The notes below the pieces were generated by a model. The model ran no database searches, was not told the DNA's origin, and worked only from the letters and a program-made list of their open reading frames with translations. DNA of 64,000 bases. Origin: an uncultured Methylococcaceae bacterium (GTDB lineage Bacteria > Pseudomonadota > Gammaproteobacteria > Methylococcales > UBA1147). Below, piece after piece: positions 34,935 through 61,996 of this stretch. Each line of letters begins with the position of its first letter. The stretch's first letter is position 1. The stretch lies in the NCBI GenBank assembly GCA_964619885.1, contig CAZUGA010000011.1:38441-102440 (forward strand). The letters run 5' to 3'. The position numbers and the translations under genes are program-made.

Positions 34935-36215
34935 CTATTCAACAGAGAAAATTTCTAGTGCGCTCAAATTCTTATTAATAACCAATCCATGTAGAAGATG
35001 TCTTTTTAACCCCAAAATGTTTTTATCAATATGAAACATTTTTTCGACCGTATTTTGGCCTGCATCACCGAAACGTTTACTCAACTGTTTGTTTTCGAAC
35101 ACCTTTACGAGCTCTTTAGCTAATTTAAGCCCCGAATCGGGTTCGACCAATACGCCATTTTGTTGGTGCTCAATTATTTCCGATATCGCGGGCACCTTTG
35201 TGGCGACTACCGGAATCGCCATGGCCATGGCCTGCAACAATACAGTCGGAATATCAAGGTGCTTGCCACCACCAGCGGTTCGATACGGAAGAACAAATAT
35301 ATTCGTGCGTTGGAATACGGCTTTCAGTAATGCCGGACTAATGTTGCCCCTCAGGTGGACGAACCCTGTCAGATCATATTTTTTCAGAGAATGTTGCAAT
35401 AATTCCCGGTCGGGACCTGTTCCGACGATATCGCATCGAAAGCGATAACCCTCCGCTTTCAAGTGCGCGCAAGCCTTGATAAGGCAATCAAACCCCATTT
35501 TATTGGTCAATTTTCCAATACTCAGAATGGAAATTAGCCGGTGATCATCGGGTAATGCAGATTTGAGTAAATCGGATTCGAACCATTCTGCGTCCAAGCC
35601 TTGATAAACACGGTGTATCGGTATCCCGATCGTATTAAGCGATTGCAAATACTGCCGATCATACTCACAGGATGTTGTAATGAACTGAGGTTTTCGCAAA
35701 TTTCGTCTCGTCGTCAATTGTTGCAATAATAAGAAGTCCTCAGCACGAACCGATATGCTGAATCGAATGCTAGATAATTCACAGGCGATTTCCGCTACAT
35801 CCGCTGGTTCGCCACAACCGCATATATGCAAATGCTGCACTCCACTGCGCTTCAAATCTGCGCTCAAATACAGAGCATGGAACAAATCGCGGGTTCTACC
35901 AGGCACCTTGCGCAAAATTAAATATGTTGTTGTTTTTAAGTACCACCAGGGGTGCCGTATCATTCCCCAACTATGCGTGAACATCATTCGCCAACAGATT
36001 TTCCACGATAAAAAATCCGGCTCTCTTACTGGCACGGCTGCTTCATCAAAAACGGGCTGCATACTGCTCTCCATAGATTGCCGTAGATAAAAAACTGTCA
36101 CTGCAACGCCATTCCTATGCAAAGCCAAAATTTCTGTCTCTGCTGCTTCTTTAAGCTTCGCCGGGTAAGATTTCAGTAAATATCCGACCTTTACTTGGGG
36201 TGACAGTTTGTCCAT
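34935..36215 (-). CDS. GT4-family glycosyltransferase (WcaL-like)
   Basis: Start at MDKLS, with agaggaa RBS. The N-terminus VGYLLKSYP... is paralogous to the GT4 genes at 57383 and 58713. C-terminal ...P.V.T....I.E.I.....G.LV motif. Confidence 0.8.
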   Translation of the reverse strand: MDKLSPQVKVGYLLKSYPAKLKEAAETEILALHRNGVAVTVFYLRQSMESSMQPVFDEAAVPVREPDFLSWKICWRMMFTHSWGMIRHPWWYLKTTTYLILRKVPGRTRDLFHALYLSADLKRSGVQHLHICGCGEPADVAEIACELSSIRFSISVRAEDFLLLQQLTTRRNLRKPQFITTSCEYDRQYLQSLNTIGIPIHRVYQGLDAEWFESDLLKSALPDDHRLISILSIGKLTNKMGFDCLIKACAHLKAEGYRFRCDIVGTGPDRELLQHSLKKYDLTGFVHLRGNISPALLKAVFQRTNIFVLPYRTAGGGKHLDIPTVLLQAMAMAIPVVATKVPAISEIIEHQQNGVLVEPDSGLKLAKELVKVFENKQLSKRFGDAGQNTVEKMFHIDKNILGLKRHLLHGLVINKNLSALEIFSVE

Positions 36216-36677
36216 AGCACGTTCCTCTAATATAAAACTGTGGCCGCTATTGAGAGCACTTTTTCCACGTCGGTTCAACGATTACTGGTCAACGTCCGAG
36301 TCAGTGAAAGTGTCGCCAAAGATGGTCTGTTTGTGGGATTTTTTTCCACGTTATAGTTGATAGTACATGGGATAATTTCCCACGTCAAGCGTATTTATTC
36401 GTATTATTTAACTTTACGTTTTATAGTGTTTGCGACTCGATGGACCACAAAATATCAAGCTGGATCGACCACGTTATCAGAATGGGATAGAGGTTACGTT
36501 GCGTACAGTTACAACACCGACCGATCGACAGACGCACGGATGCACTCAGTCCTTATCTATGTTCCGCCGGGTATAGCTTTTGCCTGAAAATAGGCGATAG
36601 GGGATAGAATATTGAATTAGCGTTCTTCGTTCTCAACGGGCGTATCGAATATATCAATCAAGGTGATGTTTTTAATG

Positions 36678-38600
36678 TCAATATCCTGCTTTCATTTGAT
36701 TGATAGAACGGCTCTCAATATTGAACAAGAGTGTCTGTAGCTTAAGATCGTTCGGGTTGATACCAAGAGCCAAACGATAATGCTCGATGGCCTCTAGAGG
36801 TTTGTTCATTCTCTCGAGAGCGTTGCCAAGATTGACGTGGGCGTCTGCATGTTCTGGCTGTAGATGAATAACCGCCTGATACGCAACAACGGCCTGATCA
36901 AACCGACCGGCGCCGGCCAGAGAGATACCCAAATTATTCAATGCTTTTACGTAGTCGGGTTCTAAACTGATTGCCTGCTTATAGTGAGTAATCGCTAGTT
37001 CCAGATTGCCGCTTGTATAGGCGCCTAATCCAAGGATAAAATACAATTCGGCGTCTGGCCCGAGTATGGAGAACGAACGCTTCGCTAGCCGAGAAGCATC
37101 TTCAGCTTTACCTGCCCAGCTAAACACTTTGGCTAAATTTTTCAACCCCCGTCCTTGTGCGTTACGATCGAGCTTACGCATAATCGCGTGCGTTGTCTCT
37201 TCAAGCACTCCCTGGTTCCGCAGTGGTGAGATTTCAACGAGCCTCATCTCAACAAATTTCTTCATTAACGCAATCGCCAGAATTCGATGCGCTTTGATCA
37301 CTGGGTGCACATGATCATAGAAATACGCTTCACCCAAAATTTTGTGGCCGAATTGCCGATAAGAATCATTCTCCAAAACACCAATAAAATCGACCACGGG
37401 CACCTCATATTGCGCAGCAACTTCATTGATCATCGATGGCATCGACGAGACCGCTCGCAACGGACAAACATCCTCATCGACGGCCCGCTGGAATGCTTTT
37501 TTTGCATTGTCGAAATCCCCCAACGAGTAAAAAGTCTGGCCAAGATGATAATGAAGATCAGCATTCGTTGGGTCCATCGCTTCAGCCTGTCGTAGATAGT
37601 TTAGTGCTTCAAACCATGATCCGTCTCGTTTGGCTCGTTTGGCTTGACGAAATATTGCAGACCACTCTCGTCGCTGTTGACCGGTCAATCCGGTATCTTG
37701 CTCACTTTTGAACGGGGAATTATTCTTCAGATTCGACGCCGGGGTGACAAAAACGAGTTGCGTACCTGTCAACTCAGCGATTTCCGCCATGCGCTTCAAG
37801 TTGAAACGATAGTGTGCTAAAATATCGGCGCGCCATTCAGCATCCCGGTGATACGCGTCGGGACCAATGCTGTGATCGAGTAGCGCATCGACTTCGCTGG
37901 ACAGCTGAGGACGTCGCCCAATCCGATTCACTTCAGATCCAGTAGAATTGGAATAGTTGATTACGTTCTTAAGGCTTGTATACACTCGGGTTCTGTTTAA
38001 TAGATTATCCAACTCTGCAAGCCATGGTACCTGGCTCATAATGCCAGCGTAAGTTCGTGCCTCAAGAAATTCGTTGTGACCACTGTACACGATGAAAAGA
38101 TCCGGACTGTATTGAGTAATCTCCTCCATCAATCGCACAACCCGGTAGCTGGCATAACTGATTCCACCCGCGTTGATCACCTCCCACAAACGTGACGGGT
38201 AGAAAGCTGTGAGATAGGCTCTCAACCAGCCGCAGAAAGATGTTTGATCATCAAACGGCCGACCATAGGTGGTCGATCCACCCATACAAAATATTCTGAA
38301 TGTACCCGACGCTTTTTCCTTGGCAAAACGTTGGTCGTTAAAGTACCGGATTTTGTTTTCGGCAGTCGCAACGACCTTCTGACCACCTGCGATTTGTTTC
38401 TCGACGAATAGTGGGCTGTTAGAGGCAAATCCAACATACGGATCAAATTTGTAATAAATCGGTTCAACACCGAATAGAAAAAGAAACAGTTCTCCTACAA
38501 TAAAAAACAGGCTGGTTGTTAACAGACCGGTTGTTAACAGGCTGAACAATACTAATTTGGTTCGGCCAATTTTCAAGCATTTGTATTTTTCTAGTGCCAA
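36678..38600 (-). CDS. Membrane-anchored SGNH/GDSL-like hydrolase domain fused to C-terminal TPR repeats
   Basis: N-terminal TM. Block I-like FRIFCMGGSTTYG and block V-like YYDHVHP. The C-terminal half holds repeated TPR units (e.g. ADLHYHLGQTFYSLGDFDNAKKAFQRAV). Confidence 0.6.
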   Translation of the reverse strand: MALEKYKCLKIGRTKLVLFSLLTTGLLTTSLFFIVGELFLFLFGVEPIYYKFDPYVGFASNSPLFVEKQIAGGQKVVATAENKIRYFNDQRFAKEKASGTFRIFCMGGSTTYGRPFDDQTSFCGWLRAYLTAFYPSRLWEVINAGGISYASYRVVRLMEEITQYSPDLFIVYSGHNEFLEARTYAGIMSQVPWLAELDNLLNRTRVYTSLKNVINYSNSTGSEVNRIGRRPQLSSEVDALLDHSIGPDAYHRDAEWRADILAHYRFNLKRMAEIAELTGTQLVFVTPASNLKNNSPFKSEQDTGLTGQQRREWSAIFRQAKRAKRDGSWFEALNYLRQAEAMDPTNADLHYHLGQTFYSLGDFDNAKKAFQRAVDEDVCPLRAVSSMPSMINEVAAQYEVPVVDFIGVLENDSYRQFGHKILGEAYFYDHVHPVIKAHRILAIALMKKFVEMRLVEISPLRNQGVLEETTHAIMRKLDRNAQGRGLKNLAKVFSWAGKAEDASRLAKRSFSILGPDAELYFILGLGAYTSGNLELAITHYKQAISLEPDYVKALNNLGISLAGAGRFDQAVVAYQAVIHLQPEHADAHVNLGNALERMNKPLEAIEHYRLALGINPNDLKLQTLLFNIESRSINQMKAGY

Positions 38601-39412
38601 AACTCTTTCTGGTATCCCAATTGAAGCCCAATACCCATGTCAGGACTACCGGTGCTAAAACCAACCACACCATACAAATTGACCGAAAACTTGGATGCAT
38701 ACTTCCAGGTCGCGTAAGAAACAAACTCCCAGGAATCTTCAGCGAAATCGGTTGTCGCTTCGCGGTAATCGCCTATCACGCCTCCACTCCATTCATCATT
38801 GACCTTGTAACCTATCCCCAACGATGCGAAAAACGTATCGTTTATCTCGATACCTGCAGGATTACCGGTAAATCGATACCCAGTCGTTGCAAACGGCGAG
38901 AATTGTCCCATAGAGTGAAAGACGTCCAACTGAACCGTATAGTCGGCTTCACCGGTCCCCAAACCTTTATTTTCATCTGCCGTGGGAATTTTAACTTTGC
39001 CAGTCAACTCAAATGACGGTAGATCATCCAAAAACCAAGTATAGGATCCGCTCAAAATGACATCGCCCAAGCCGGACTCTGTCGTGGTTACCAATTGTGT
39101 CGGAACACCGACAATCGGACCGTCAGGACCACCCCCGATCACGCCACCTGCGCCTGTTATTCGGATATACGGGATGGTTAATTTCATCGTCCACGCATCG
39201 TAGTTATATTTTATTGTGTTGGGTACATACCATATTTCTGTGTTTGTCGGCTGTCCATAGTTGCCCGAGCTGTAATCAAAACCTGTCGTAAACTTCAGGC
39301 TACCCAAGTATTGCTCGGGCTGGTTTCCGTCGTTCGGGTTTACTTCAGCCAGCGCGGCATGCGCTGGAAAAATCGTACCGACCAACAAAAAAATATGTAT
39401 AGACTTTGGCAT
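38591..39412 (-). CDS. Outer-membrane beta-barrel protein (MetA-pathway/phenol-degradation-like 'transporter' family)
   Basis: Signal peptide. FTTGFDYSSGNYG..., GLGDVILSGSY and KIPTADENKGLGTGEADY blocks, with an aromatic C-terminus (W-H). Confidence 0.62.
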   Translation of the reverse strand: MPKSIHIFLLVGTIFPAHAALAEVNPNDGNQPEQYLGSLKFTTGFDYSSGNYGQPTNTEIWYVPNTIKYNYDAWTMKLTIPYIRITGAGGVIGGGPDGPIVGVPTQLVTTTESGLGDVILSGSYTWFLDDLPSFELTGKVKIPTADENKGLGTGEADYTVQLDVFHSMGQFSPFATTGYRFTGNPAGIEINDTFFASLGIGYKVNDEWSGGVIGDYREATTDFAEDSWEFVSYATWKYASKFSVNLYGVVGFSTGSPDMGIGLQLGYQKEFWH

Positions 39413-39455
39413 ATTACACACCCTTTTTTTGTATTAGGAAATATGGCTAGTTCTG

Positions 39456-40913
39456 CTAATTTCGTCCGGAACGGTCCGGCCGATCTATTCTTTCGGGCCG
39501 GTCAGGTCTGACAACGCGCTCCGGACGTTCGGGTCGCGTTGCGCGTTCTGGGCGTTCAGGCCGTACTGGTCTGTCTGGACGGTTTGGTCTGTCTGGACGA
39601 TTCGGTCTGTCCACCCGATCACCTCGTTCGCTTCGGTCAGTTCGATCTCTTCGTTGGGACCGTTCTGAACGGTCGGACCGATCTGAGCGTTCGCCACTGC
39701 TCGATTTTTCCGAACCGCTCGAATCAATATTGCGGCTCCCAGATGAATTAGAACCGGGAAATGTTAGCGTCTCGTCAAAGCCACGCTCGATGGTAATTCC
39801 ATCAACCTCTATGCGACCTTTTGTCGTCAAACGCCCGGAAACCCTTACCCGTCGTCCGGTTTTAATGGTTGATCTATCTCCGCCAATAATCCTAGCTTTA
39901 TCGGAAATGGAAAGATCAGTGAGTCCTAATCGCAAATTGCGACCCTCTGATCCCTGATCCAAGTACCCTTCTATATTAACCCTGGAGACCTTACCGCCAA
40001 ACGGGATAGGACTTTCGACATCCACCACTCTCGCATTGATTTGACCCTGCTCCAAAACACCCCGTACCGATACAACGTTATCTTTACGGACACGAGAAAC
40101 CGCTGATAAACCACGCAGATTAATCGGCGTTCCGTCGTCCACCTTGACAATTGCGCCCTCACGAAAAGACACCCGGCCACTGATACGGACATCTTTGGAC
40201 GGCGTTGTACGCTCGACTCTTGAGGCCATCACGGCGCCATTAGGGCGGCGCAAACCGCTAATTTTTACAAATTGCCCTTTAACCAGAGTAGCGGGATCGA
40301 TAGGTAGTATATTACCGTCCGTGACGATGCTGCGGCTGCCGAATCGAACGGATTGTCCCAGTACCTGGATCCGTCGCTCGGCAAGATTGACCGACGAAAT
40401 CGGGCCCGATAATGCGTGATCGACCCGGATATTCTGCGCAACCACACGACTACCCACATTTTTTGCAACAACCTGGACAACCTGACCAATCGCAAGCGCT
40501 TTGTGTGAAGCCCGCTTGCCGTCAACCTGAACCGGTGTGCCTGGATCAAAATGAACCTCGACTCCATTGACGCAAATACTGGCAAATTCCGAAATCGTGC
40601 CTAGCAATCCAATTGTGTCCCCGTCGGCCAAATCGCCGGTTCCACCGATACCGCCATCACCCGACCCATGGCCGGTGCCACCAATTCCACTACCCTCATC
40701 CTGGAGGCCTGTACCGCCAATACCTCCGGTGTCATCTTCATGCCCGGTACCTCCGATACCACCGTCTTGATTTGTATGGCCGGTGCCGCCTATACCCCCA
40801 GGTTCAAATCTACAATTGTCTGCTGTTGCTACAGTAGTCGACCCAAACAAGATAACTAGTACAAAACCAATAGCCCGTAGCATGAACCAAAACCTTTTAC
40901 GATTCACATCCAT
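39456..40913 (-). CDS. Secreted repeat protein: five GGIGGTG units, DUF5666-like beta-rich repeats, and an Arg/Asp/Glu/Pro-rich C-terminal tail
   Basis: N-terminal hydrophobic signal. GGIGGTGH-x4 repeats span aa 39-93. Repeated V..V......I.VLGQ.V...... modules follow. The last ~77 aa are DR(S/P)xR repeats. The DUF assignment is from memory. Confidence 0.6.
   Translation of the reverse strand: MDVNRKRFWFMLRAIGFVLVILFGSTTVATADNCRFEPGGIGGTGHTNQDGGIGGTGHEDDTGGIGGTGLQDEGSGIGGTGHGSGDGGIGGTGDLADGDTIGLLGTISEFASICVNGVEVHFDPGTPVQVDGKRASHKALAIGQVVQVVAKNVGSRVVAQNIRVDHALSGPISSVNLAERRIQVLGQSVRFGSRSIVTDGNILPIDPATLVKGQFVKISGLRRPNGAVMASRVERTTPSKDVRISGRVSFREGAIVKVDDGTPINLRGLSAVSRVRKDNVVSVRGVLEQGQINARVVDVESPIPFGGKVSRVNIEGYLDQGSEGRNLRLGLTDLSISDKARIIGGDRSTIKTGRRVRVSGRLTTKGRIEVDGITIERGFDETLTFPGSNSSGSRNIDSSGSEKSSSGERSDRSDRSERSQRRDRTDRSERGDRVDRPNRPDRPNRPDRPVRPERPERATRPERPERVVRPDRPERIDRPDRSGRN
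39459..39695 (-). repeat. Coding short tandem repeats (DRS/DRP/ERP units) at the 3' end of the repeat-protein gene
   Basis: Plus-strand runs such as ggtctgtctggacggtttggtctgtctggacgattcggtctgtcc. They translate to ...DRPNRPDRPNRPDRPVRPERPERATRPERPERVVRPDRPERIDRPDR. Confidence 0.8.
40635..40799 (-). repeat. Coding 36-nt periodic repeats (GGIGGTGxxxxx, five units)
   Basis: The degenerate plus-strand unit ggtRccRccRatWcc recurs every 33-36 nt. It is protein-coding, not a CRISPR array. Confidence 0.8.
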
Positions 40914-41751
40914 CCTGATCTGGCGAACAAGGTTCGGCGTAAAAATAAATACCGAAGTTCATCCGGTGTTCCGGTTTCTGCCGGATCGTACCGTTATCTT
41001 CCAACGTAATCGCTTTTCGGTTCAACTCCTGAAGCAGTGCCATCCCTTTGTTTTTTGCCAATCCGTTCAGTTCGGCAACTGCATCGACATTCAATCGATT
41101 ATAGTAAACGCTTCGCTCAAGAAACGCGGGCGCCGCACCCAACATATTGCTGACACCGGCAGCAATGTGATCATGTAAATTCTGCCCAAAATAAAACGCC
41201 TTTTCATCAAAGCCCTTTTCCGGAATGAAAGCGTTCGTGTTCAATATCACCCGGTCTCGTTCGTCCATATGCACAATACCCAGTCTCAACCATTCATCCA
41301 GAACGACACGCGAGCGGATGTCTTTGCTGACCGAAATAACCAAGGCTTCGAATGATAACTCGCCACCGTCTTTGATGAGTCGAGGCAACGAAAGCGGGCG
41401 GGCATTTTGGTCCTGATACTTGGGCAAACTGGTCCATTTTGCGACTAATTGTGCACCCAAAGAAATAGAGTTCGGCGCGACGTAATCGTGTCTCGCGTGT
41501 TCCTGTAAACGTTTTACATCCTTTCTATGCACACCGGTCAATAAGGAAATCCGACTGACCGACTGTTTCCTTCCTTCGATCACAAAGTCATCCGCCGCAG
41601 TTTCTACATACAACTTCTTTATTAGATTACAGAATGTCGCATAACCGATGCCATGCGCAATCAATAATTTGATCAATGGACGCAGCAGCCGACTAAGCGC
41701 ATTCATGAGAGATGAGGGTGGGGAACCAACGATTTCGATGCTATCCAGCAT
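40897..41751 (-). CDS. DUF6502-like protein with a probable HTH segment
   Basis: LLRPLIKLLIAHGIGYATFCNLIKKLYVE...SVSRISLLTGVHRKDVKRL. The family assignment is from memory. It overlaps the start of the downstream repeat-protein gene by 17 nt. Confidence 0.45.
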   Translation of the reverse strand: MLDSIEIVGSPPSSLMNALSRLLRPLIKLLIAHGIGYATFCNLIKKLYVETAADDFVIEGRKQSVSRISLLTGVHRKDVKRLQEHARHDYVAPNSISLGAQLVAKWTSLPKYQDQNARPLSLPRLIKDGGELSFEALVISVSKDIRSRVVLDEWLRLGIVHMDERDRVILNTNAFIPEKGFDEKAFYFGQNLHDHIAAGVSNMLGAAPAFLERSVYYNRLNVDAVAELNGLAKNKGMALLQELNRKAITLEDNGTIRQKPEHRMNFGIYFYAEPCSPDQDGCES

Positions 41752-41943: not shown

Positions 41944-43143
41944 TCATTCACTTCCCACCACCTTTTCCACAAACTCAACATAGCGGCGCGCTTTGCAATC
42001 ACCGTTGCTTTTAATTGAGCGGACAGCCTTTAACGCTTTTGCCAAATGCTTATGACATCGGTAAGTCTGCAATAAACAAGAATCCAAAGATCCTGCTGTT
42101 TTTTGGTACGCTTCTAAAAAAGAGCCATTGATCTCGTCAACCGGGATCTTTTCTGCGTCTTCGAAGTCCATTTCGGCGATAAAAGTAGCGGCATCCAATT
42201 CCGGATCCCCCACGCAAACCCGGTCAAAGTCGACCAGACCCAAACCCTGTTCCGATATTAACCATTGGTGTGGATGTGGCGCTCCGTGGAGCGGTTTGGG
42301 CGGCCTATCGGTCAATCGGTGGTTTTTTTCCAATTTGTCCAATATACGGTTGAGCTTATTGGCAAGATCTGGCATTTGTCTTGATAGTTCAGACGCATAT
42401 TTGGTCGTTCGCTTGAGCTGTTCGGCTCCACCAAATTTTAGGGTTGGCTTTAAACGACTTTGCGTGAGGCTCGCGGCGGCATTGCCGATACACTCGGCAA
42501 TACGGCTTCCTCCGGAACTAAATAGCTGATCAATCACAGATTCGCCGGGTACGGTCTGTTACCACAGTGTATCGGTGGATGGGTCCCAAGCCATCGGTTC
42601 CGCAACAGCAAACTGTAACTGACCATCATTCGCAGCCTCCCACAACGCAATGCTTTCCCGGTAAATCTGTTCACCCCTTTTGTCGGCAAACATCTTTCCG
42701 AATACCTGCCCGGAACGGTTTGATTTTGACACTCGAAATGTACACCGTTTGTACGGTCGGTAGCGTAATACCTCGAGGTCTTCGACATCTTCAAGCACTC
42801 CGGCCAGTTTAGTCAGGCAAGGGTCATCCGGAAACCTTCGCAATTGTAACCAGCCCAACGACGAATCAAAATATTGAATCGTTTTTCGGTCGGCGAGCGG
42901 TTGATCGTCAAATATTTCAACAAAACAAATGTTTCTCGAACATTGGGGGTGTTCGTAGAGGATCGCCGCATAGGGTGAACCGCCGGGATCCAATCGACCG
43001 AAACTTCGTTTCCAAACGAATGAATGATCCCAGTCAGGCCAACGTTGAACCGCCATATCAATTATTTTTCTAGACCACGATTTTTCGACCAGAACGTTTA
43101 AACGCTCTCTATAGCGCTCAAAGACTGAACGAGATCGCATCAA
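41944..43143 (-). pseudogene. APH/choline-kinase-fold protein gene split by an in-frame TAA, with a degenerate catalytic loop
   Basis: ORFs 42559..43143 and 41944..42537 share one frame, separated by TAA at 42559-42561. ..DTLW*QTVPGES aligns with ..KMLWQHSVPGVL of the paralog at 53912..55342. The catalytic loop reads HGAPHPHQW instead of HGDLHxxN. Confidence 0.65.
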
Positions 43144-47313: not shown

Positions 47314-47355
47314 ACATAACTATCGCCAACGGTTGAATTTGAGCTGTACTAATCA

Positions 47356-53845: not shown

Positions 53846-53911
53846 TACCGGCCCCGGCCCCAACCACTAAGTGCAGTTCATAGCGTACAAACATATTTCA
53901 CATACCATCAG

Positions 53912-55342
53912 TTAACTGGCCTCTGCGCAAACAACTTTACAATCACGCGGGAGCCAACTTGGACAAAATTTGGGATCGAGAAGACATTCAGCTGTACCGA
54001 CCAGATCATCTAAAATTTCCATACGACCTGGCTTTAATCGCGTGAATCCGCGATAAAGTCGCTGGTAGATCAACGCTGCAGCAATATGCCAACGCAAGCG
54101 CGTTTCAGAAATTGGCCACGGTACGCTGTCGCCATAACCCACGAGAAAGCTTTTAATTGTGGGATCCACGAGCTCGGCGGGGATATCCGTCACTAGGCTG
54201 AGATTGATGATCATCGCGACGAAACTACCGATCTCTTGCAGAGGGTCTCCCCAATTCAAGTTATCCAAATCGATCAGGTAAACCCCATCGTTGTGACATA
54301 GAATGTTTTTAAGGTGAAGATCGCCATGCAGCACTGCCCGTTGCTCGCATTCGATAGTCGGTAGCAATCCGAGCAGGCTCTCGATTAGGCGATCAACCTT
54401 CAGTCGGTAGGGAGGATCGAATACACGCAATAAACACCCAACTTTATTTAATTCCCGACTCAGTTCTGAGGAACCGTATTCAATGCAACCCTCAATTCGC
54501 TGTTGGTGAAGACACGCAATCTGTTGCGCGGCTTGCGCGATATTTTCCAGTAATGTTGCGCCGTCAGCGGTAAATTCCGATAACAGCACACCGGGCACGC
54601 TATGCTGCCATAACATTTTAAGCTGAGGTTGATAGGTCAATGGCTCGGGGATTCGCAGTCTCTCCTCACGACATGCTGGACTGTCCCACAATTGGCGCAT
54701 CAAAGAATAGGTTCGTTCGCCATCATCGTTGTAGTAGGTCTTGCCATACAACAGCAAGTCGCGGCGTGCTCCTGACGATTGATGCACCATCTTAAATTTC
54801 GCTCGAACCGTACACGTGTGTTCAGGAATGTAGCGGATGATTTCTGGCCGACATTCGTCAACCATCCAATCAATTCCAAAACGTTTTGAAATCAGTTCGG
54901 GTAAATCGGTCTGTCCCAGGAACTGGCTATTGTCTACTTTATCCAGATGATGCAGCTTACGGTCGTACGGAAAAACCCAGGCAACTGTATCCAATTCGGG
55001 AATATGCAATACGGATTTTTTTAGATCGTGACCATCCACCAGCCCCTGACAGGCTTTGCCGTAGCGTGTTATTGCGCCACCCGCTTCGAAGCATCTAGCG
55101 TATATCCGTTGCTCCGAACGATAACCGATCACGGTACTCTCAACGATTAACCGATAGCATACCTGGCAGTTTTTTGCCGGTTTGTATTTGATGCGCTCGA
55201 TGTAACATTGCGAGATGGTTTGTGACCCATCAGAAAACAGCTGGCGTTGAAACACGGATCGCATCTTGTCCACGTCAATCAACACCGGTAAATGTTGCAA
55301 TGTCTTGTCTGAAGGAATCATTACAAATTTTCGGTTTTGCAA
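53912..55342 (-). CDS. APH/choline-kinase-fold phosphotransferase
   Basis: VLHGDLHLKNIL and YLIDLDNLNWGDPLQEIG motifs are intact. The start could instead be the ATG at 55321. Confidence 0.75.
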   Translation of the reverse strand: MQNRKFVMIPSDKTLQHLPVLIDVDKMRSVFQRQLFSDGSQTISQCYIERIKYKPAKNCQVCYRLIVESTVIGYRSEQRIYARCFEAGGAITRYGKACQGLVDGHDLKKSVLHIPELDTVAWVFPYDRKLHHLDKVDNSQFLGQTDLPELISKRFGIDWMVDECRPEIIRYIPEHTCTVRAKFKMVHQSSGARRDLLLYGKTYYNDDGERTYSLMRQLWDSPACREERLRIPEPLTYQPQLKMLWQHSVPGVLLSEFTADGATLLENIAQAAQQIACLHQQRIEGCIEYGSSELSRELNKVGCLLRVFDPPYRLKVDRLIESLLGLLPTIECEQRAVLHGDLHLKNILCHNDGVYLIDLDNLNWGDPLQEIGSFVAMIINLSLVTDIPAELVDPTIKSFLVGYGDSVPWPISETRLRWHIAAALIYQRLYRGFTRLKPGRMEILDDLVGTAECLLDPKFCPSWLPRDCKVVCAEAS

Positions 55343-57429
55343 TGTGCCTGTTGGTCAATCTCTATAGTGCTTCCCGGTGCTGAGAAACAACACAGTGGAT
55401 CTCCGTTACGTCCAAGCCGCAAAAAACAAAAAGTGCCGTCGAAATGATAATTGCTGATTCGCCATTTTCGTGGAACACCATCATGAGATATAAAAAAATA
55501 ATCGGTGACACGACGGTTCCCGGATTCGATGCTGAGCGAAAATGCCACAGCGTCCGATGATGGACTTTGGTCGTGGCCTATTTCGGCATCCAAAATTTCG
55601 ACGCGAAACCGAGGGCTCGTATTTTTGAAGGGATACAGTAGCGTATTAAATGCAACGCATTTATCCATACACCCAATATTGACTATCGGCGCATCGTTTC
55701 TTACACCATAACTCGGAGAGACGTAACCCGATTCTACGGCCACGTCGATTCCATTTTTGCCTTTGTACGGTAGAACCATCGCAAGATTTGATGATTCTAT
55801 TGTAATCGATTGCCTATCCCGCCGAACCGGCGGAAGGTTAGTGGACTGCGGAGAGAGATGATAGTGTAAACGATACTCGTGTGCGTTAGTATCGCGCAGA
55901 CGATCGGATACCAACCAATACTCGCCCTGCACAAAAAAAATCAACCTTTCGTGGGTCGCGGTATATTGCGGACTGCGTGCAATCCCCTGCAATAGATCGA
56001 AACCGTCGTTGCTGACAAAACTCTGCAACTTAGCCATAGGGCAATCGCCGTGAATCTTATATTTCCCCAATCGGGCGTTGTATCGATAATCCACCTGATT
56101 TTTGCCGTCTACGGTAACTGTGTTGTGGTAGCGTGTGGACCGAAACATAGCGCGCCAGTTGGTATCACCGGATTCGTCGTAAGTGTAACGCCCTGGATCG
56201 ACGATCAAACTACGTCCGTAGGCCGCCATTTCAATATTCAATAGGTCAAAATGGCCATGATTGCCCGCACCTAGCGGACCACAATCGAACACCAGATAGC
56301 GTGCATCCTGATACGCTTCCCGATCGCGGGCCCACGAGCTTCTCAACACAGAATAACCACTCTGCGTAAAACTTCTGGATCGTTGCCGCGGAGGGACGCC
56401 AGATTTCCCGCGAGAACCAACGAAAATCAGGTGTTCATCTGCATATAACTTTGCCCCCAATAACATCCAATCCAAAAAGCTGCGTGTATCGCCATCGCTC
56501 AGAGAAGGTATGTTACCGTCCGGTTTATGCACATATAACGAAAAATTCAACGCCCTTTTTACCGCCTGGTCAAAGCGTTTCTCCATGCTGATATTGTTGG
56601 CAACCGCCAAGCGTTTGACCGCCAGGAAATTTTTCAACACGATGTGGTGGTAAAAAGTGGAAAGCTCACAATGCACGCCGTCCGGTAATATATCGGTCGC
56701 GGCATTGTCAGCCAATGCGCCTATCGAAAACTCCAACCAGCGGTCCGAACCGCGCAGTTCCGGAAACCAGACCGCTGCCAGAAAAATCGCGTACATCTCC
56801 AGCGTTCGATGGTTGCGCGCGGGCGTTAGATGATCGATTAAGAACTCAACTTGTTCGCTTAACGACGCCAGGAATCGAGTCAAGAACGTCGAAGAAACGT
56901 CACTGTGTGGATTGCCTGTCACCAAATAATAAAAGGAATAAATCCAGTTCTGGACGCGTCGGCCAGTGACATCGCTGGCAATAAAACCCGGCTCGGTCTG
57001 CTCGATCCACGAATCAATCAATTCAACCCATTTTTCGAGAAATTCGACATTACCGGTTTCCCGGTATCGATTCCCCAATCCGACTAGGTAGTAGCCCTTG
57101 TGTAAAAAAATCAGCCATTCGATATCGCTGCTGGGATTCTTTCTCCAGTCGATTTTGGATCCCAAATCGTGAAGCTCGTCGTTAAACGTAAAACGATTGC
57201 TTAACACGTCATCGATAAACGCTGGCTCGACTTGATCCGCCTCGTGGACCGGAAACAACTCGATGGATTGTCTATTTTTGAAATGGGCTAGTAATTTTTG
57301 ACCGGAATAACGGTCGAAGGGTGCCTTAAACGTCGATAGGGCTGTGATCGACGCAGCTGGAATGTTATCCGCCGATGGGCTCTTACGAATGAGCACGAAT
57401 GACCTCTCTATCAGCTGTCTTCGTGACAC
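55321..57429 (-). CDS. Heparinase II/III-family protein (alginate-lyase-like N-domain plus Hepar_II_III C-domain)
   Basis: ...NHRTLEMYAIFLAAVWFPEL... and GAGNHGHFDLLNIEMAAYGRSLIVDPG are typical of the family. 702 aa. Confidence 0.78.
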   Translation of the reverse strand: MSRRQLIERSFVLIRKSPSADNIPAASITALSTFKAPFDRYSGQKLLAHFKNRQSIELFPVHEADQVEPAFIDDVLSNRFTFNDELHDLGSKIDWRKNPSSDIEWLIFLHKGYYLVGLGNRYRETGNVEFLEKWVELIDSWIEQTEPGFIASDVTGRRVQNWIYSFYYLVTGNPHSDVSSTFLTRFLASLSEQVEFLIDHLTPARNHRTLEMYAIFLAAVWFPELRGSDRWLEFSIGALADNAATDILPDGVHCELSTFYHHIVLKNFLAVKRLAVANNISMEKRFDQAVKRALNFSLYVHKPDGNIPSLSDGDTRSFLDWMLLGAKLYADEHLIFVGSRGKSGVPPRQRSRSFTQSGYSVLRSSWARDREAYQDARYLVFDCGPLGAGNHGHFDLLNIEMAAYGRSLIVDPGRYTYDESGDTNWRAMFRSTRYHNTVTVDGKNQVDYRYNARLGKYKIHGDCPMAKLQSFVSNDGFDLLQGIARSPQYTATHERLIFFVQGEYWLVSDRLRDTNAHEYRLHYHLSPQSTNLPPVRRDRQSITIESSNLAMVLPYKGKNGIDVAVESGYVSPSYGVRNDAPIVNIGCMDKCVAFNTLLYPFKNTSPRFRVEILDAEIGHDQSPSSDAVAFSLSIESGNRRVTDYFFISHDGVPRKWRISNYHFDGTFCFLRLGRNGDPLCCFSAPGSTIEIDQQAHCKTENL

Positions 57430-58720
57430 TAGACGCTATCGAACTATTCAATAAATTTTGTAATTGCAGCGTGGTCTTGGCTGAATCAAATCGTTCACAA
57501 ACAGTTTTTCTAGCATTGCTGGAAAGCCGACTCGCCAGCATCGTATTGCTCAACAAGCGTTCCATGGCAACCGCGAGCGATTCTGTGTCTTGCGGCTTAA
57601 CCAACAACCCATTTTTTTCATTTTCGATTAATTCCGGAATCCCGGAGATTTCGGTGGACACCACCGGAAGCCCACAAGCCATCGCTTCGACCAACACATT
57701 CGGAATGCCATCTCGATCGCCATCCTTGACAATTTGGCACGGCAACACAAACAGAGTGCTTTGCTGATAAATCGGTAACAATTCCTCGTGTGCCCTGGGC
57801 CCTTCGAGCGTCATGTAGCCTACCAGACCCAAGCTTGTAATTTGGCGCAAAAGCACGGGGTACTGGTCTCCGCGCTCTCCGATAATCCTGCAGTTAAATC
57901 TAGTGCCTTTGTTGCGCAGAATCGCACAGGCCTCGATCAAACGGTCAAACCCCTTTTTTTCGACAAAACGGCCAATAGCGAGTATGACCGGATCTGGCCT
58001 TCGATAAGGTCTATCCTCAGGTCTGAAAAAGTTGACATCGATCCCATGGTATATTTTGTGTATTTTGGTCTCCCGGCCCAGCCATTTCAGGTATGTTTCA
58101 TTAGCACCCGTACACGTTGCAACAAAGCTCGATGCCTGAATTTTCAGATTCAGCAGATTACCCGGATTCTGGTTTTCCTGATAGATATCTTTGGCATGAG
58201 CGGTAAAACTAAACGGTAATCCTGTAAGACGGCTGACGAACATTGCGATGGTGGTCGCGCCATGACAAAAATGAGCGTGACAATGTCGAATCTGCCCGGA
58301 ATCTTCAATTTGGCGGGCGATGTATCCGGCCTGGATAAATTCTTTAACAAAAACCTTCTTCGGCTTGGAAAAAAAACTTTCCCGGTAACGAAGACTCATC
58401 GCTAAGACGCTCGTCAGTGTTCGCAGATATCGAAAAGGTTGCTGGCGCGCCAACCGAATATGACTACGCCAATAGAAGGGCAGATTCTGCCATAACCACG
58501 CCAGTAGCCAAGTCTTGGAGAGCGACGTCATCGATGGCAGATATTCAAGCTCCGATCGGATTTCAGAAACAATATGATGCTCCAATTCTTCCGACGGCCG
58601 CTTTACCGAAAACAGCTGCATATCGGTGCCCATTTTTTCCAGCATCAGGATCTCATTACTAATAAACGTTTCGGACAAGCGTGGGAAGCCTTTTACGATA
58701 TACGCAATTTTGTTATCCAT
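57383..58720 (-). CDS. GT4-family glycosyltransferase (WcaL-like)
   Basis: IAYIVKGFPRLSETFISNEIL, EKKGF, DGIPNVLVEAMACGLPVVST..SGIPELI....NGLLV. Confidence 0.85.
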   Translation of the reverse strand: MDNKIAYIVKGFPRLSETFISNEILMLEKMGTDMQLFSVKRPSEELEHHIVSEIRSELEYLPSMTSLSKTWLLAWLWQNLPFYWRSHIRLARQQPFRYLRTLTSVLAMSLRYRESFFSKPKKVFVKEFIQAGYIARQIEDSGQIRHCHAHFCHGATTIAMFVSRLTGLPFSFTAHAKDIYQENQNPGNLLNLKIQASSFVATCTGANETYLKWLGRETKIHKIYHGIDVNFFRPEDRPYRRPDPVILAIGRFVEKKGFDRLIEACAILRNKGTRFNCRIIGERGDQYPVLLRQITSLGLVGYMTLEGPRAHEELLPIYQQSTLFVLPCQIVKDGDRDGIPNVLVEAMACGLPVVSTEISGIPELIENEKNGLLVKPQDTESLAVAMERLLSNTMLASRLSSNARKTVCERFDSAKTTLQLQNLLNSSIASSVTKTADREVIRAHS

Positions 58721-59969
58721 GATTTATTTTTGCAGTAATCTCAGATAGTGTGATGGTGTTATCTGACCGTAGCGCATCCGCCAACAGTTCTTTCAATCGA
58801 CCGATATGCTGATTACCCGAAAAACGTTGCAATACCCTCCGATTGCCGGCGTTACCCATTGTTTTTCCAAGTTCAGGCTGGTCCAATAAGCGTTTCAACG
58901 CGTCAAATAATGCCGCCGCATTCTCGGGTTCAACCAATAAGCCGGTCTTTTCGTCGTCAACCAATTCGGGTATACCGGATACCGGCGTGGAAACCACCGG
59001 TATTGAAAAAGCCATGGATTCCATCAACACATTAGGGATGCCGTCCCGGTCGCCATTTGCCGCGATGAGGGATGGCAATGCAAAAATATTCGTTTGACGA
59101 TAAATCTTAACTAGTTCGCTGTGCGTCATTTTGCCAAGCAGACGCACGACTCCTGTCAATTGATAGCGTGTAATCAACGCTTTTAATTCATAATAATCCG
59201 GACCGTATCCGACGATATCGCATTGGAATTCGTAGCCTGCTCGGACCAACAGCTGGCAAGCTCCTATTAGGAATGCAAACCCTTTTTTTTCTCTCAGACG
59301 GCCAACACTAAGAATACGCGGTACCCCTCCGACTTGAAGATCACCCGAGTTTTCAGCCATGATCCTAGCCGCATCGAGCCCATGGTAAACCCTATAAATA
59401 GGTGTTGCGGACGAATTGATTGACCGGAGATAACGCTGGTTGTACTCGGTGCAGGTCACAACAAATCGGGCATTCGCAATTTTTCTGCTAAGAGGTTTGG
59501 CATCGTTGACATAGATGTCTTTAGCATGCGCGGAAATACTGTAGCTTATCCCGCAAAGACGGTTTACCGCTTCCGCCAATCCGGCCGGATCGCTGGCAAA
59601 GTGAGCATGAATATGGCGAATTCCTTTTGCATCGGCCAAAGTCGCGAGGTGCACGGCTTGAGCAAATTGCGCGAAGTTTCCGCCTTCTGACCGCCTTAAA
59701 ATAAAAGAAAGCGTACTCAAGTAGCGCAAAGGCCTCTTACATACAAATTCTAGATGCGCCGCCAGCGAAAACAAACCGCCTCGTTGGTCGCCTGATAGAT
59801 AATCAACATTCGCAGAAACATTGTCGAACGCGGTGTGAAACTCATCATCCGTCGGTCTTTGCAGGGCGAATATATGCAGACCGGTGGATTCACGTTGCAG
59901 TGCCAATATTTCCTGTAGAACAAAGGTCTCCGAAAGTTTTGGGTAAGTCTTAACTAAGAAACCAAGCAT
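58713..59969 (-). CDS. GT4-family glycosyltransferase (WcaL-like)
   Basis: Start at MLGFLVKTYPKLSETFVLQEIL. EKKGF and DGIPNVLMESMAFSIPVVST..SGIPELV....TGLLV. Confidence 0.85.
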   Translation of the reverse strand: MLGFLVKTYPKLSETFVLQEILALQRESTGLHIFALQRPTDDEFHTAFDNVSANVDYLSGDQRGGLFSLAAHLEFVCKRPLRYLSTLSFILRRSEGGNFAQFAQAVHLATLADAKGIRHIHAHFASDPAGLAEAVNRLCGISYSISAHAKDIYVNDAKPLSRKIANARFVVTCTEYNQRYLRSINSSATPIYRVYHGLDAARIMAENSGDLQVGGVPRILSVGRLREKKGFAFLIGACQLLVRAGYEFQCDIVGYGPDYYELKALITRYQLTGVVRLLGKMTHSELVKIYRQTNIFALPSLIAANGDRDGIPNVLMESMAFSIPVVSTPVSGIPELVDDEKTGLLVEPENAAALFDALKRLLDQPELGKTMGNAGNRRVLQRFSGNQHIGRLKELLADALRSDNTITLSEITAKINHG

Positions 59970-61228
59970 TTGCTTACCTGCTGTTGGCCGCAAGGAATGT
60001 CAGCAATTGGAGTATAGGAATAAACAGTTTGGTTCGTGCTTCTGTTGTCGTCGAAGAGTCTTTTGAAATGTCCTGCCAAATTTGAGAGGCCATTGAAATC
60101 AATCGAACGCGCTGAATCAGGGGATACGGTGTTGTTTGACAATTGATGCGATACCGCCGTGAGCAATCGCCGCGGCGTCAACTCCGCTGGAGGTATACAG
60201 GTTAGCAATCCCAATTGCTCTAACCGCTTTGCACGTATCAATTGCTCGCGAACCGGTTTGTCTCGTGGTACGACCACGGCACGCTTGTTGATGGAAAGGA
60301 TTTCCACGATGGTATTGTAGCCTGCCATCGATACAACCAAATCTGCATCTCGCATATAGGCCATAAGATTTGGCGTGAATTCCAGCGTTTGTACGTGATC
60401 CAATCGATCGGACAGTTGATAAATCTTATTTCTGTTCGACACAGACATTTCAGGGCCTGTCACGATGGTACTGTTGATCCTAAATCCTTTGACACTTTCT
60501 AGACCGGCCAAATAGGTTTTTAGTAATTCGAACCCATCTTCTCCCCCCCCGGCTGTGACTAAAACACGGGGGGTTTCTTTTTCTGAAAATAAATCGATCA
60601 ATTCCGGATGCTTTGCGAAATGGGACCTGTGGGTATAACCGCAATATTCAAGTTTCTTGGCCGCTTCCGCAGGAAATTGGTATTCTCTGCCAACATCGAA
60701 GACATTGGACGCTCCCATAACCAAAATGGAATCGTAATGACGCTCTATACTTCTAAAATAATCGTTCTTTAGCCATATTCCTCTGGTCGTTTCCGGGTCG
60801 TCCAATATATCTCTAAGCAGCAGCACAACCTGGGTTTGTTTTTTCGCTCCCCGGACCAGTTCGAGCGTCGGAAGCAATTCATCCGCTACGCCACGTGGTT
60901 TCTTGTCCACCAAAATAATATCGGGGTCGAAATTGGCAACCGTCGCCTGAATAATTTGGGTTCTTACCGCGACCAATTCTTCAAACTGCGTACCCAATCT
61001 CTTTACCGTGTACTCGCCTTTTACGGTTCTTCCCAAACAGGGTAATTTTAGATAATCGAAACGTTTTTCCGGCAGGTGGAAATGATGGATCATCGGCGAA
61101 CCGGAGACCAACAGTACGGATAACTCCGGGATCGTTTCGAGAAGATGCTGGGTGATTGCCAACATACGTTTGATATTGCCCAACCCAAACGTATCATGCG
61201 AGTACACCACCAATTTTTTAATATTCAT
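59954..61228 (-). CDS. GT-B glycosyltransferase, MurG/GT28 C-terminal-domain-like
   Basis: Start at MNIKKLVVYSHDTFGLGNIKR, with aaggagg upstream. VTAGGGEDG and SMAGYNTIVEILSINKRAVVVPR. Confidence 0.68.
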   Translation of the reverse strand: MNIKKLVVYSHDTFGLGNIKRMLAITQHLLETIPELSVLLVSGSPMIHHFHLPEKRFDYLKLPCLGRTVKGEYTVKRLGTQFEELVAVRTQIIQATVANFDPDIILVDKKPRGVADELLPTLELVRGAKKQTQVVLLLRDILDDPETTRGIWLKNDYFRSIERHYDSILVMGASNVFDVGREYQFPAEAAKKLEYCGYTHRSHFAKHPELIDLFSEKETPRVLVTAGGGEDGFELLKTYLAGLESVKGFRINSTIVTGPEMSVSNRNKIYQLSDRLDHVQTLEFTPNLMAYMRDADLVVSMAGYNTIVEILSINKRAVVVPRDKPVREQLIRAKRLEQLGLLTCIPPAELTPRRLLTAVSHQLSNNTVSPDSARSIDFNGLSNLAGHFKRLFDDNRSTNQTVYSYTPIADIPCGQQQVSKCLVS

Positions 61229-61996
61229 ATTCTGCTCATTCCTCCTTGGCCCCATTTTTGTTCGATTGGGTTTCGTAACTAACAATACATTTCGTACCAA
61301 TCATTCAATCGATTCCCAAACCCCGTAAGAAAAGTTCTCATCGGTTCGGTCAATTTGAACCGGTCAAGTCAAATACTTGAACAAACTATTAAACTGGAGG
61401 GCCATCTTCGTTTTAGATTTGCCCGCCTTTAGGTCGGTAAAATCAACCTACGAGACTACCTTTTTACGGGAAAGGCCTATTTCCCATTTATCTATTTATC
61501 CGAGGATTAGCAAGAAAGGTTCAATAAATATTACGATTTGATGACAACAAGATCCCGAGAAACGGTTCAATTCGCCCGGATATCTGATACGTATCGTTGG
61601 TCGGGGCAGCGAGTGTAATGACAGCGCGGGCGAAGATTCGGACTCGGGAGGGAAACCTACGTGTAGTCCCTTAGGCACGCACATCGAGTGTAGCGCAGTC
61701 GCGCGTGAGATTACCGTTCCACGGTAGAATGCTTGTCCGTGGGTAACGTTAAGGAATTATAGATAGATCAAGAGCCCGCTACGTTCAGGAACGGGCCAGC
61801 AGATATGCGGTTAGATTTGCAACCAAAATATGATTGGTTCTGCCACGCTCTGAAAATCATGGATGAACTTATTGTGTGTCTTTAGAGATAAATTCGATCG
61901 GTCTATTTCCTCAGACAGATTGGCTCAAGAGTTAAAGCGTTAATCAATGACTTGTTGACGTGACCAAGCCACGTAAGATCAACCACTATAGAAGGG

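Follow-up and report, generated by a model that had tools for sequence, protein, structure and literature searches.

The window analysed here is a stretch of 64,000 nucleotides from an uncultured Methylococcaceae bacterium (assembly GCA_964619885.1, contig CAZUGA010000011.1, positions 38,441 to 102,440 of the forward strand), and the subject of this article is a cluster of genes at positions 34935 to 61300 of it, nearly all of them on the minus strand. The cluster was examined by a map of open reading frames (ORFs) and by scans of these with Pfam and NCBIfam profiles, in which the bit score of the best model was judged against the curated NCBIfam cut-off. The window most likely holds one member of a widespread, uncharacterised cassette for the assembly and export of a glycan, which is composed of glycosyltransferases (GTs), a kinase, a heparinase homologue, a putative deacetylase and an ABC exporter. 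These genes, with a frequent accessory glycosyltransferase and an outer-membrane porin, are the following (the called gene is given first and the longest ORF, where it differs, in brackets):

59954..61228 (longest ORF 59954-61300), minus strand: GT28a, MurG/GT1-like inverting GT-B glycosyltransferase, core; Glyco_tran_28_C.
58713..59969 (longest ORF 58713-59993), minus strand: GT4a, retaining GT4 glycosyltransferase, frequent accessory; Glycos_transf_1, EpsE/WcaL-like below cut-off.
57383..58720, minus strand: GT4b, retaining GT4 glycosyltransferase, core and most conserved; Glycos_transf_1.
55321..57396 (longest ORF 55321-57429), minus strand: PL12, heparinase-III homologue, predicted cytoplasmic, near-core; Hepar_II_III_N and Hepar_II_III_C.
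53912..55321 (longest ORF 53912-55342), minus strand: signature kinase, APH fold with an extra N-terminal domain, core; APH.
52640..53845 (longest ORF 52640-53863), minus strand: GT28b, second MurG-like GT-B enzyme and paralogue of GT28a, core; Glyco_tran_28_C.
51919..52656, minus strand: CE4-like protein, CE4/DUF2334-like putative deacetylase of 245 amino acids, core; domains of homologues and motifs.
43140..44921, minus strand: ABC exporter, type-IV (MsbA/ABCB-like) half-transporter, core; ABC_membrane and ABC_tran.
45352..47313, plus strand: AlgE-like outer-membrane porin with an N-terminal DUF5666 domain; Alginate_exp and the PDB entry of AlgE.

A preliminary description, made from the letters of this DNA, had proposed an envelope-glycan cluster of about 26 kb whose genes between 61228 and 51919 form one translationally coupled operon. 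The cluster and its coupling are real; however, the overlaps of 4 to 47 nt that it reported belong to the longest ORFs, the gene calls of the source contig giving overlaps of 1 to 17 nt and a single gap of 66 nt, and about 9 kb of the cluster is lineage-specific accessory material that lies outside the conserved system. Most of the enzymes that it named are recovered by the profiles. Glycos_transf_1 is matched by three GT4 proteins, the two listed above and a third, GT4c (34935-36278), and their WcaL-like label is apt insofar as EpsE and WcaL are the best NCBIfam models, but all scores lie far under the curated cut-offs. Both MurG/GT28-like GT-B proteins carry Glyco_tran_28_C, the heparinase II/III-fold protein carries the N- and C-terminal domains of that family and matches heparinase III in the PDB (E = 6.5e-32), and the MsbA-type exporter stands at the level of its class. 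The CE4-like call is backed by the domains of homologues and by family motifs, and not by a Pfam match of the protein itself. The conservation of the set across phyla, the predicted cytoplasmic location of PL12, the fusion of GT28b with the CE4-like protein and the uronic-acid signal are absent from that description. No cluster protein reached a curated NCBIfam cut-off, so none can be taken as an orthologue of a named enzyme.

Relatives of the cluster were collected by a kinase-profile scan of species-representative genomes, which returned 112 of them; the analyses use the best 80 loci, all from metagenome-assembled genomes, with 10 kb around the cassette as neighbourhood. When the window proteins were compared by BLAST with every ORF in these loci, the core set, as the preliminary description had asked, was seen to co-occur across taxa: the 80 loci, from at least ten phyla, share the colinear order GT28a, (GT4a), GT4b, PL12, kinase, (further kinase paralogues), GT28b, CE4-like protein, ABC exporter. 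The carriers are Methylococcales and other Gammaproteobacteria, Betaproteobacteria, Nitrospirota (including Candidatus Manganitrophus), Nitrospinota, Acidobacteriota, Chloroflexota, Actinomycetota, Bacteroidota, Calditrichota, Planctomycetota and Deinococcota. As this order recurs in 80 independent loci, the gene set is more than a product of chance. Component counts were restricted to the 43 loci with full 10-kb flanks: the signature kinase, GT4b, GT28b and the CE4-like protein (free or fused) are present in every one (43/43), with slightly lower counts for the ABC exporter (40), GT28a (39) and PL12 (38); GT4a was seen in 21 of the 80 loci. GT4b is 40-58% identical across phyla. GT28a has at least 2975 relatives in the protein collection, and the signature kinase belongs to a family of 1588 clusters at 50% identity (E<=1e-30) without assigned function.

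The cassette is compact, with seven to nine genes and only three GTs in its minimal version, which makes it testable by heterologous expression. In the plasmid collection it was found solely on four metagenome-assembled replicons of Candidatus Manganitrophus, and in the PGAP annotation of one Manganitrophus copy its genes bear generic names only. A reduced form, without the kinase and without the PL12 homologue, occurs in cyanobacteria in the order histidine kinase-response regulator, GT28a, GT28b, GT4, GT2, ABC, long histidine-phosphatase-family protein; it was located in L088 (6443-18420) and L090 (8152-18129), the former being Scytonema sp. UIC 10036, a strain in culture that would open the reduced cassette to genetics. 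Candidatus Manganitrophus noduliformans, which grows in an enrichment co-culture, has a module of GT28a, ABC exporter and porin. Full-text searches found no paper on the cassette, and no match to a characterised cluster was found in the literature or in curated family libraries. It is a bacterial glycan assembly-export cluster in which known enzyme families stand in an undescribed and conserved combination. Two other identities were rejected. An anti-phage defence system has no PADLOC support, since PADLOC matched no core enzyme and returned generic ABC ATPase and subtilase similarities only, and a catabolic locus was rejected because the GTs, four to five in number, are biosynthetic, the ABC protein is of the exporter type and has no binding protein, and the lyase homologue is cytoplasmic.

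The core enzymes of the window have no signal peptide and no transmembrane segment, and according to profiles and transmembrane scans all GTs of the cluster are soluble GT-B enzymes; a similarity to PelF among them reaches 30.5 bits. GT4b is weakly similar to MshA, BshA and sucrose-phosphate synthase in NCBIfam. The family profile of GT28a matches MurG (7d1i, E = 1.9e-12), and its GGGxDG motif, E309 and E328-Q329 align with GGSQG, E269 and Q288-Q289 of MurG, the positions that bind UDP-N-acetylglucosamine (UDP-GlcNAc) being kept. The GT-B fold (AF2 model, pLDDT 85.8) and the MurG-type C-terminal motifs for the UDP-sugar, by which CAZy GT28 is recognised, are both present in GT28a; no match to the Glyco_transf_28 N-domain was found in Pfam. 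The top Foldseek matches of the model are natural-product enzymes of GT1, with MurG slightly lower (target-normalised TM-score 0.71-0.76), and the predicted fold does not distinguish a lipid acceptor of the MurG type from a small molecule of the GT1 type; given the GT1-type matches, a small soluble acceptor fits as well as a polymer.

The PL12 homologue is 702 amino acids long in its longest ORF and 691 in the called gene, which starts later. Its family profile matches heparinase III (4mmi/4mmh, E = 2e-59), and the invariant residues N206-H207-R208, Y260-H261 and H391/H393 align to NHR, YH and H of 4mmi, so that both the two-domain architecture and the catalytic-type residues of PL12 are in place. 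A hydrophobic N-terminus or signal peptide was seen in none of 18 aligned homologues, the score with the NCBIfam model HepC is 151 bits (cut-off 700), and the gene sits in a biosynthetic operon, which sets the protein apart from secreted or periplasmic degradative heparan-sulfate lyases. Enzymes of this fold remove the proton at C5 of a uronate, and those of related folds are lyases or, in the case of dermatan-sulfate epimerase, epimerases. Lying in a biosynthetic operon, the predicted cytoplasmic homologue is a candidate for a bacterial enzyme that epimerises uronates or edits chains. The CE4-like protein matched nothing in Pfam by itself, and its family matched nothing in the PDB by sequence; its homologues carry PF01522 and PF10096/DUF2334, and the family keeps invariant RDDD, HGxxH, PPWNR and LHH motifs in the order of CE4. 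In 25 loci GT28b and the CE4-like protein are one polypeptide, which is strong evidence that both act on the same residue. The uronic-acid signal comes from accessory nucleotide-sugar C6-dehydrogenases (TviB-like, WecC-like and Ugd/TuaD-like) and GalE/TviC-like epimerases that lie inside the cassette in four phyla; the TviB-like enzyme scores 567.6 bits against a cut-off of 592.

Kinase richness, pointed out in the preliminary description, proved to be a defining trait of the cassette through the signature kinase, but a phosphorylated end product is not thereby established. Of the three APH-fold proteins proposed, the domains are all found; the third, however, is broken by a stop codon and lacks the catalytic Asp. 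The two other kinase-like genes of the cluster are the following:

47356..48957, plus strand: HxGH nucleotidyltransferase-like domain fused to an APH kinase, accessory; APH and N-terminal motif.
41944..43143, minus strand: APH-2, Asp-less pseudokinase-like second APH paralogue interrupted by TAA; APH on 41944-42537.

The signature kinase keeps the invariant motifs H339-G-D-L-H-x-x-N346 and I357-D-L-D360, and its AF2 model (pLDDT 91) has an extra N-terminal domain; it has the HGDxHxxN loop, DxD metal site and bilobal fold of APH/choline-kinase-like enzymes and, with its catalytic motifs invariant, is predicted to be active. It shows weak similarity to LxmK and is not an orthologue of WaaP. Foldseek returned generic small-molecule kinases (PsiK, MTR kinase, APH(4), ChoK, corramycin kinase), and the structure was set aside as a clue to the substrate. 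Some members of the kinase family (P0241, P0250, P0277, P0294, P0317) are tandem fusions of two kinase units, with 750-938 amino acids. APH-2 is a single frame with an in-frame TAA at 42559-42561 (…DTLW*QTVPGE…), and the window copy reads HGAPHPHQ; as HGAPHxHQ replaces HGDxHxxN in 9 of 10 homologues, APH-2 is a conserved Asp-less pseudokinase-like protein. It is intact, with 401 amino acids, in the relative L086, and the window copy is either a pseudogene or the result of a sequencing error. The fusion protein has an N-terminal HxGH motif, FPGAFRPPHANH, in a domain that resembles the cytidylyltransferase superfamily, with weak matches to 3h05 and NadD; it was found in 8 of the 80 loci, plus L086, and by analogy with the logic of HldE it may activate an unusual sugar or alcohol donor. 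Histidine-phosphatase genes lie beside the kinases in 12 of the 80 loci (for example L087, 13385-15020, and L091, 18210-18863) and in the cyanobacterial variant; their insertion at this place suggests a cycle of phosphorylation and dephosphorylation in some lineages. A radical SAM gene is inserted next to the kinases in three loci.

These features of the kinases and of GT28a bear on a small-molecule product, that is, an exported pseudo-oligosaccharide or glycoside, such as an aminoglycoside-like compound, a compatible solute or a signal, for which an acceptor or inactive precursor would be phosphorylated, given a few sugars, deacetylated at one GlcNAc, exported by an ABCB-type transporter and, in some lineages, dephosphorylated by a phosphatase. 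Aminoglycoside pathways use just this logic of GT4, deacetylase, APH and ABCB exporter. The signature kinase matches small-molecule kinases in fold, GT28a finds its best structural matches among natural-product GT1 enzymes, GT4b weakly resembles MshA, BshA and sucrose-phosphate synthase, and the histidine phosphatases are recurrent. The loci, however, are devoid of the tailoring genes typical of such pathways, among them those for cyclitols and aminotransferases; PL12 and the dehydrogenases for uronic acid indicate an oligo- or polysaccharide that contains uronate, porins of the AlgE type are known for polymers and the cassette is spread widely across phyla, and we consider such a product very unlikely.

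The hallmarks of the known assembly routes were looked for with the same profiles. Among the window ORFs scanned, no priming transferase of the WbaP/WecA type was found; Wzx, Wzy and Wzc/Wza (polysaccharide co-polymerase and outer-membrane export proteins, PCP/OPX) were found neither in the window nor as recurrent families in the 80 loci. The cluster holds no KpsM/KpsT or KpsE/KpsD, its sole ABC protein being the fused ABC_membrane-ABC_tran half-transporter, no KpsC/KpsS transferases of the 3-deoxy-D-manno-octulosonic acid (Kdo) linker and no processive GT2 synthase with co-polymerase. The absence of these hallmarks from the window, as first described, is upheld in this way, and it extends to the 10 kb around the cassette in the related loci, where ORFs were clustered and proteins with at least four hydrophobic segments were screened as polytopic: no priming transferase, flippase, polymerase, ligase, oligosaccharyltransferase, LCP or synthase family is recurrent, and among polytopic membrane proteins only the ABC exporter recurs, except for an Opp-type importer in 5-6 loci. 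Past position 64000 no canonical gene follows up to the end of the contig, which carries just an extracytoplasmic function (ECF) sigma factor and a Gcw_chp gene.

A route outside the Wzy-, ABC- and synthase-dependent schemes had been proposed. The missing hallmarks stand, but a carrier-free route is not shown by them, because an enzyme of the WecA/TagO type could prime in trans, and the PglK/Wzk scheme had been left out of consideration. The flipping of undecaprenyl-pyrophosphate-linked glycans by a type-IV ABC transporter is a known scheme (PglK, Wzk), and many O-antigen clusters lack their priming gene. A lipid-carrier route would run through priming in trans by a WecA/TagO/MraY-type enzyme that makes an undecaprenyl-pyrophosphate-sugar, its extension by the MurG-like and GT4 enzymes at the inner leaflet, flipping by the ABC protein as in PglK/Wzk and transfer to lipid A-core, protein or wall by a ligase or LCP protein encoded elsewhere. 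It shares with PglK/Wzk a type-IV ABC half-transporter beside cytoplasmic GT-B enzymes, and it agrees with the C-domain of GT28a, which is closest in sequence to MurG, whose acceptor is a polyprenyl-pyrophosphate, and with the place of the exporter in the structural class of MsbA. None of the 80 loci, though, yielded a priming transferase, an oligosaccharyltransferase or a ligase, and no LCP family recurs near them; moreover, a product linked to lipid A or protein would have no need of the barrels that accompany the cassette in diderms, and the cassette also occurs in Actinomycetota and Chloroflexota. We regard this route as rather unlikely.

Only the type-IV ABC exporter class is established for the exporter, which does not qualify as an MsbA lipid A flippase: MsbA is its best NCBIfam model (TIGR02203, cut-off 602), with 282 bits, and a second model gives 231 against 867, while the glucan ABC transporter model gives 193 bits (cut-off 733) and the PglK model 120 (cut-off 1000). 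ABC families of bacteriocin export and type-I secretion give scores with it too, and its PDB matches are ABCB1, Sav1866 and MsbA. A recurrent ORF of 148 amino acids after the ABC gene was dismissed as an alternate-frame artefact. Of the two outer-membrane barrels of the preliminary description, the AlgE-like one is confirmed (Alginate_exp, 1.4e-25; AlgE in the PDB, E = 5e-23) and has the character of the AlgE/PgaA/BcsC-type porins of synthase-dependent systems, but the 'MetA-pathway-like' one at 38591-39421 gave no significant family match. Barrels accompany the cassette only in diderm phyla, as AlgE-like proteins or, in Acidobacteriota, as OMP_b-brl_4, and none was found in the cassette loci of Actinomycetota, Chloroflexota and Deinococcota; this restriction argues for a product that leaves the inner membrane soluble and must cross the outer membrane. 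An importer of the Opp/Dpp type (SBP_bac_5 and two permeases) lies immediately upstream of GT28a in L010, L015, L017, L019, L037 and L039; in the importer-bearing loci (5-6; Acidobacteriota and metagenome-assembled genomes labelled 'Heliomicrobium') a CarboxypepD_reg/OMP_b-brl_4 barrel is found downstream of the ABC exporter.

A soluble product is at odds with a phosphoglycolipid built on a membrane lipid, for example diacylglycerol, by peripheral GT-B enzymes and protein-kinase-like kinases at the inner leaflet, according to the logic of the lipopolysaccharide (LPS) core, and flipped as by MsbA. The enzymes of CAZy GT28 (MurG, monogalactosyldiacylglycerol synthase, UgtP) act on lipid acceptors, MGD1 and RfaG/WaaG turn up as weak matches in the PDB, kinases and GT-B enzymes together with an MsbA-like exporter resemble WaaG/WaaP/MsbA, and a minimal cassette of three GTs would suit a short head group. 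Besides the porin association, the deep cleft of the PL12 enzyme, made for oligo- or polysaccharide, and the accessory uronic-acid genes suit a longer glycan, acyltransferase or lipid-synthesis genes were not found in the 80 loci, and GT28a is not firmly placed in GT28 proper, which leaves a glycolipid product quite doubtful.

The other genes of the cluster, and those directly upstream of it, are the following:

63268-63984, minus strand: anti-sigma factor, upstream module; probable regulatory module with the S8 peptidase.
61997-63271, minus strand: secreted S8 peptidase, upstream module; Peptidase_S8.
51105..51548, minus strand: p147, acidic protein of 147 amino acids, lineage-specific; no Pfam/NCBIfam family.
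49428..50837, minus strand: p469, membrane protein with SGNH-like motifs, lineage-specific; motifs by eye, 3-4 transmembrane segments.
40897..41751, minus strand: DUF6502 protein, accessory, possible regulator; PF20112, 1.4e-34.
39456..40913, minus strand: secreted DUF5666 protein with GGIGGTG repeats and RP-rich tail, accessory; DUF5666 and signal-like N-terminus.
38591..39421, minus strand: putative small outer-membrane protein (small barrel); signal-like N-terminus only.
36678..38600, minus strand: N-terminally anchored SGNH-like and TPR protein (SGNH-TPR), accessory; strong TPR, GDSL near or below cut-off, transmembrane segment at 17-48.
34935..36278, minus strand: GT4c, third GT4, lineage-specific accessory; Glycos_transf_1.

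The accessory part of about 9 kb comprises GT4c, SGNH-TPR, the small barrel, the DUF5666 and DUF6502 proteins, p147 and p469, and all of these except the DUF6502 protein are without counterparts elsewhere; for GT4c, BLAST of the 80 loci gave no orthologue. The ABC, APH-2, DUF6502, DUF5666, small barrel and SGNH-TPR genes are packed as tightly as the core genes. Two membrane-anchored SGNH proteins had been named: that at 49428-50837 (p469) is supported by transmembrane segments and by GDS, GND and DxxH motifs read by eye, with no profile match, and that at 36678-38600 by a sub-threshold GDSL score together with a strong TPR match. The DUF6502 gene adjoins the cassette in L054 and L086 too. L086, a relative with 58% identity, keeps the porin, the nucleotidyltransferase-kinase fusion, intact APH-2 and DUF6502, and it lacks p147 and p469, whose position is empty there and occupied by two nucleotide-sugar dehydrogenases and an epimerase in the closest full relative, L006; these differences make p147 and p469 look like a lineage-specific insertion or replacement. 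The DUF5666 protein has six GGIGGTG(H) repeats near its N-terminus and a long charged tail of the RPDRPxRP type, and its gene includes an 18-nt tandem DNA repeat at 39567-39611. Housekeeping genes fill the remaining 35 kb of the window (kdsD, kdsC, lptC, lptA, lptB, rpoN, rapZ, mgtE, lgt, metH and others); also outside the cluster are an HTTM-domain membrane protein (23460-25364, plus strand), a Fic/DOC protein (30017-31183, minus strand) and a GT1 (EryCIII/UDPGT-like) glycosyltransferase that adjoins lgt (13057-14322, minus strand). An Rfam scan of the whole window gave no match, and hence no riboswitch, and the number of sites in promoter and terminator scans did not exceed that in shuffled sequence.

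Immediately upstream, the cassette is preceded by the ECF sigma gene (outside the window), the anti-sigma gene and that of the secreted S8 peptidase, a module that is kept in this position in Methylococcales relatives (L001, L086). The S8 peptidase also precedes GT28a in Chloroflexota loci, beside a CHAT-TPR protein. A secreted peptide or protein that is glycosylated in the cytoplasm, exported by a type-I-secretion-like ABC transporter and processed by the S8 enzyme would account for this neighbourhood in the two groups, for the scores of the exporter with bacteriocin and type-I secretion families and for the weak LxmK similarity of the signature kinase. Such a product is highly improbable: S8 is present in just 8 of the 80 loci, a conserved substrate gene, a C39 peptidase domain and a membrane-fusion or TolC partner are missing, and in Methylococcales the S8 gene shares 4 nt with that of the anti-sigma factor, a translational coupling which suggests a regulatory role for the peptidase.

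That the cassette is dedicated to the biosynthesis and export of a glycan is much more certain than how it works. As read from the genes, the GT-B enzymes would assemble, at the cytoplasmic side, an acidic glycan in which N-acetylhexosamine is joined by uronic or hexosaminuronic acid; N-deacetylation would follow on the sugar that GT28b adds, the PL12 homologue would edit the uronates by C5 epimerisation or lytic trimming, and the kinase or kinases would phosphorylate the primer or the glycan. The finished product, not linked to a polyprenyl carrier, would leave the cytoplasm through the ABC exporter, in the way in which NdvA/ChvA exports cyclic glucans, and in this gammaproteobacterium the AlgE-like porin would carry it across the outer membrane. 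The SGNH/TPR proteins may be lineage-specific periplasmic editors, and the module of ECF sigma, anti-sigma and S8 probably controls expression. We hold this package as a whole, with its acidic hexosamine/uronic-acid glycan made in the cytoplasm and exported by ABC transporter and porin, at about even confidence; we are far less sure of the make-up of the glycan, of its primer and of what the phosphate does. Several observations weigh against it. The closest structural relatives of GT28a are GT1 enzymes of small molecules, the exporter bears no subtype-specific signature and a housekeeping priming transferase could act in trans; the window itself contains no uronic-acid dehydrogenase, PL12 is absent from 14 of 33 Acidobacteriota loci and so is not essential, and the histidine phosphatases of 12 loci mean that phosphate may be a transient handle and not a final substituent. 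A more far-reaching proposal, improbable at present, is a carrier-independent secretion route, met so far almost exclusively in uncultured bacteria, for a phosphorylated glycosaminoglycan-like polymer of hexosamine and uronic or hexosaminuronic acid, edited within the cytoplasm by the transferase-fused N-deacetylase, by the PL12 homologue as C5-epimerase or chain trimmer and by the kinases, and exported by an ABCB-type transporter and, in diderms, an AlgE-type porin.

In textbooks, bacterial polysaccharides are secreted by Wzx/Wzy, ABC-2 transporter or synthase schemes. If the cassette works as proposed, these would be joined by a separate scheme, found in Nitrospirota, Acidobacteriota, Methylococcales, Chloroflexota, Actinomycetota and other phyla, and its product would be a new class of phosphorylated acidic glycan in lineages that dominate their environments and are mostly uncultured (nitrifiers, methanotrophs, soil Acidobacteriota). 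Five known systems share part of its logic, and the cassette falls outside the definition of each. As in the KpsMT/KpsED and KpsC/S system and in Wzm/Wzt, the glycan would be completed in the cytoplasm by soluble or peripheral GTs and transported by an ABC protein without Wzx/Wzy; however, the exporter here is a fused type-IV half-transporter and not an ABC-2-type pair, KpsE/KpsD (PCP/OPX), KpsC/S and a priming transferase are lacking, the outer-membrane part is an AlgE-like porin, and kinases, PL12 and the CE4-like protein are core. With the alginate system (Alg8/Alg44, AlgK, AlgE, AlgG, AlgL, AlgX/J/I/F) it has in common a porin of the AlgE family and a lyase-fold enzyme within the cluster, as well as TPR and SGNH proteins in the accessory part of the window and, presumably, a polymer of uronic acid. 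The GT2 synthase and PilZ co-polymerase of alginate are missing, though, the lyase-fold enzyme is a cytoplasmic PL12 where that of alginate is a periplasmic PL5, the inner membrane would be crossed by an ABC exporter and the TPR/SGNH genes are not kept in other loci.

Cyclic beta-1,2-glucan (Cgs/NdvB/ChvB with NdvA/ChvA) offers the precedent of a cytoplasmic glycan without carrier that leaves through an MsbA-like type-IV ABC half-transporter, as proposed here; its glycosyltransferase is of GT84, whereas the cassette has GT4 and MurG-like enzymes, and kinases, deacetylase and lyase do not belong to that system. The LPS core (WaaG of GT4, WaaP/WaaY, MsbA) likewise combines GT-B enzymes, protein-kinase-like sugar kinases and an exporter of the MsbA class with no polyprenyl carrier, but the cassette has no linked lipid A or Kdo genes, occurs in monoderm phyla, is associated with a porin and has a kinase that is not WaaP. 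The resemblance to heparosan and heparan sulfate is one of logic only: retaining and inverting GTs, a deacetylase coupled to a GlcNAc-type transferase, a heparinase-III-fold enzyme, genes for uronic-acid donors and multiple O-modifying enzymes are found in both, with GT4 and MurG-like enzymes in the place of GT45/GT2/GT47/GT64 and kinases that would take the place of sulfotransferases. Should the proposal hold, the cassette would be a phosphate-based counterpart of heparan-sulfate editing and a further general route of glycan secretion, in at least ten phyla.

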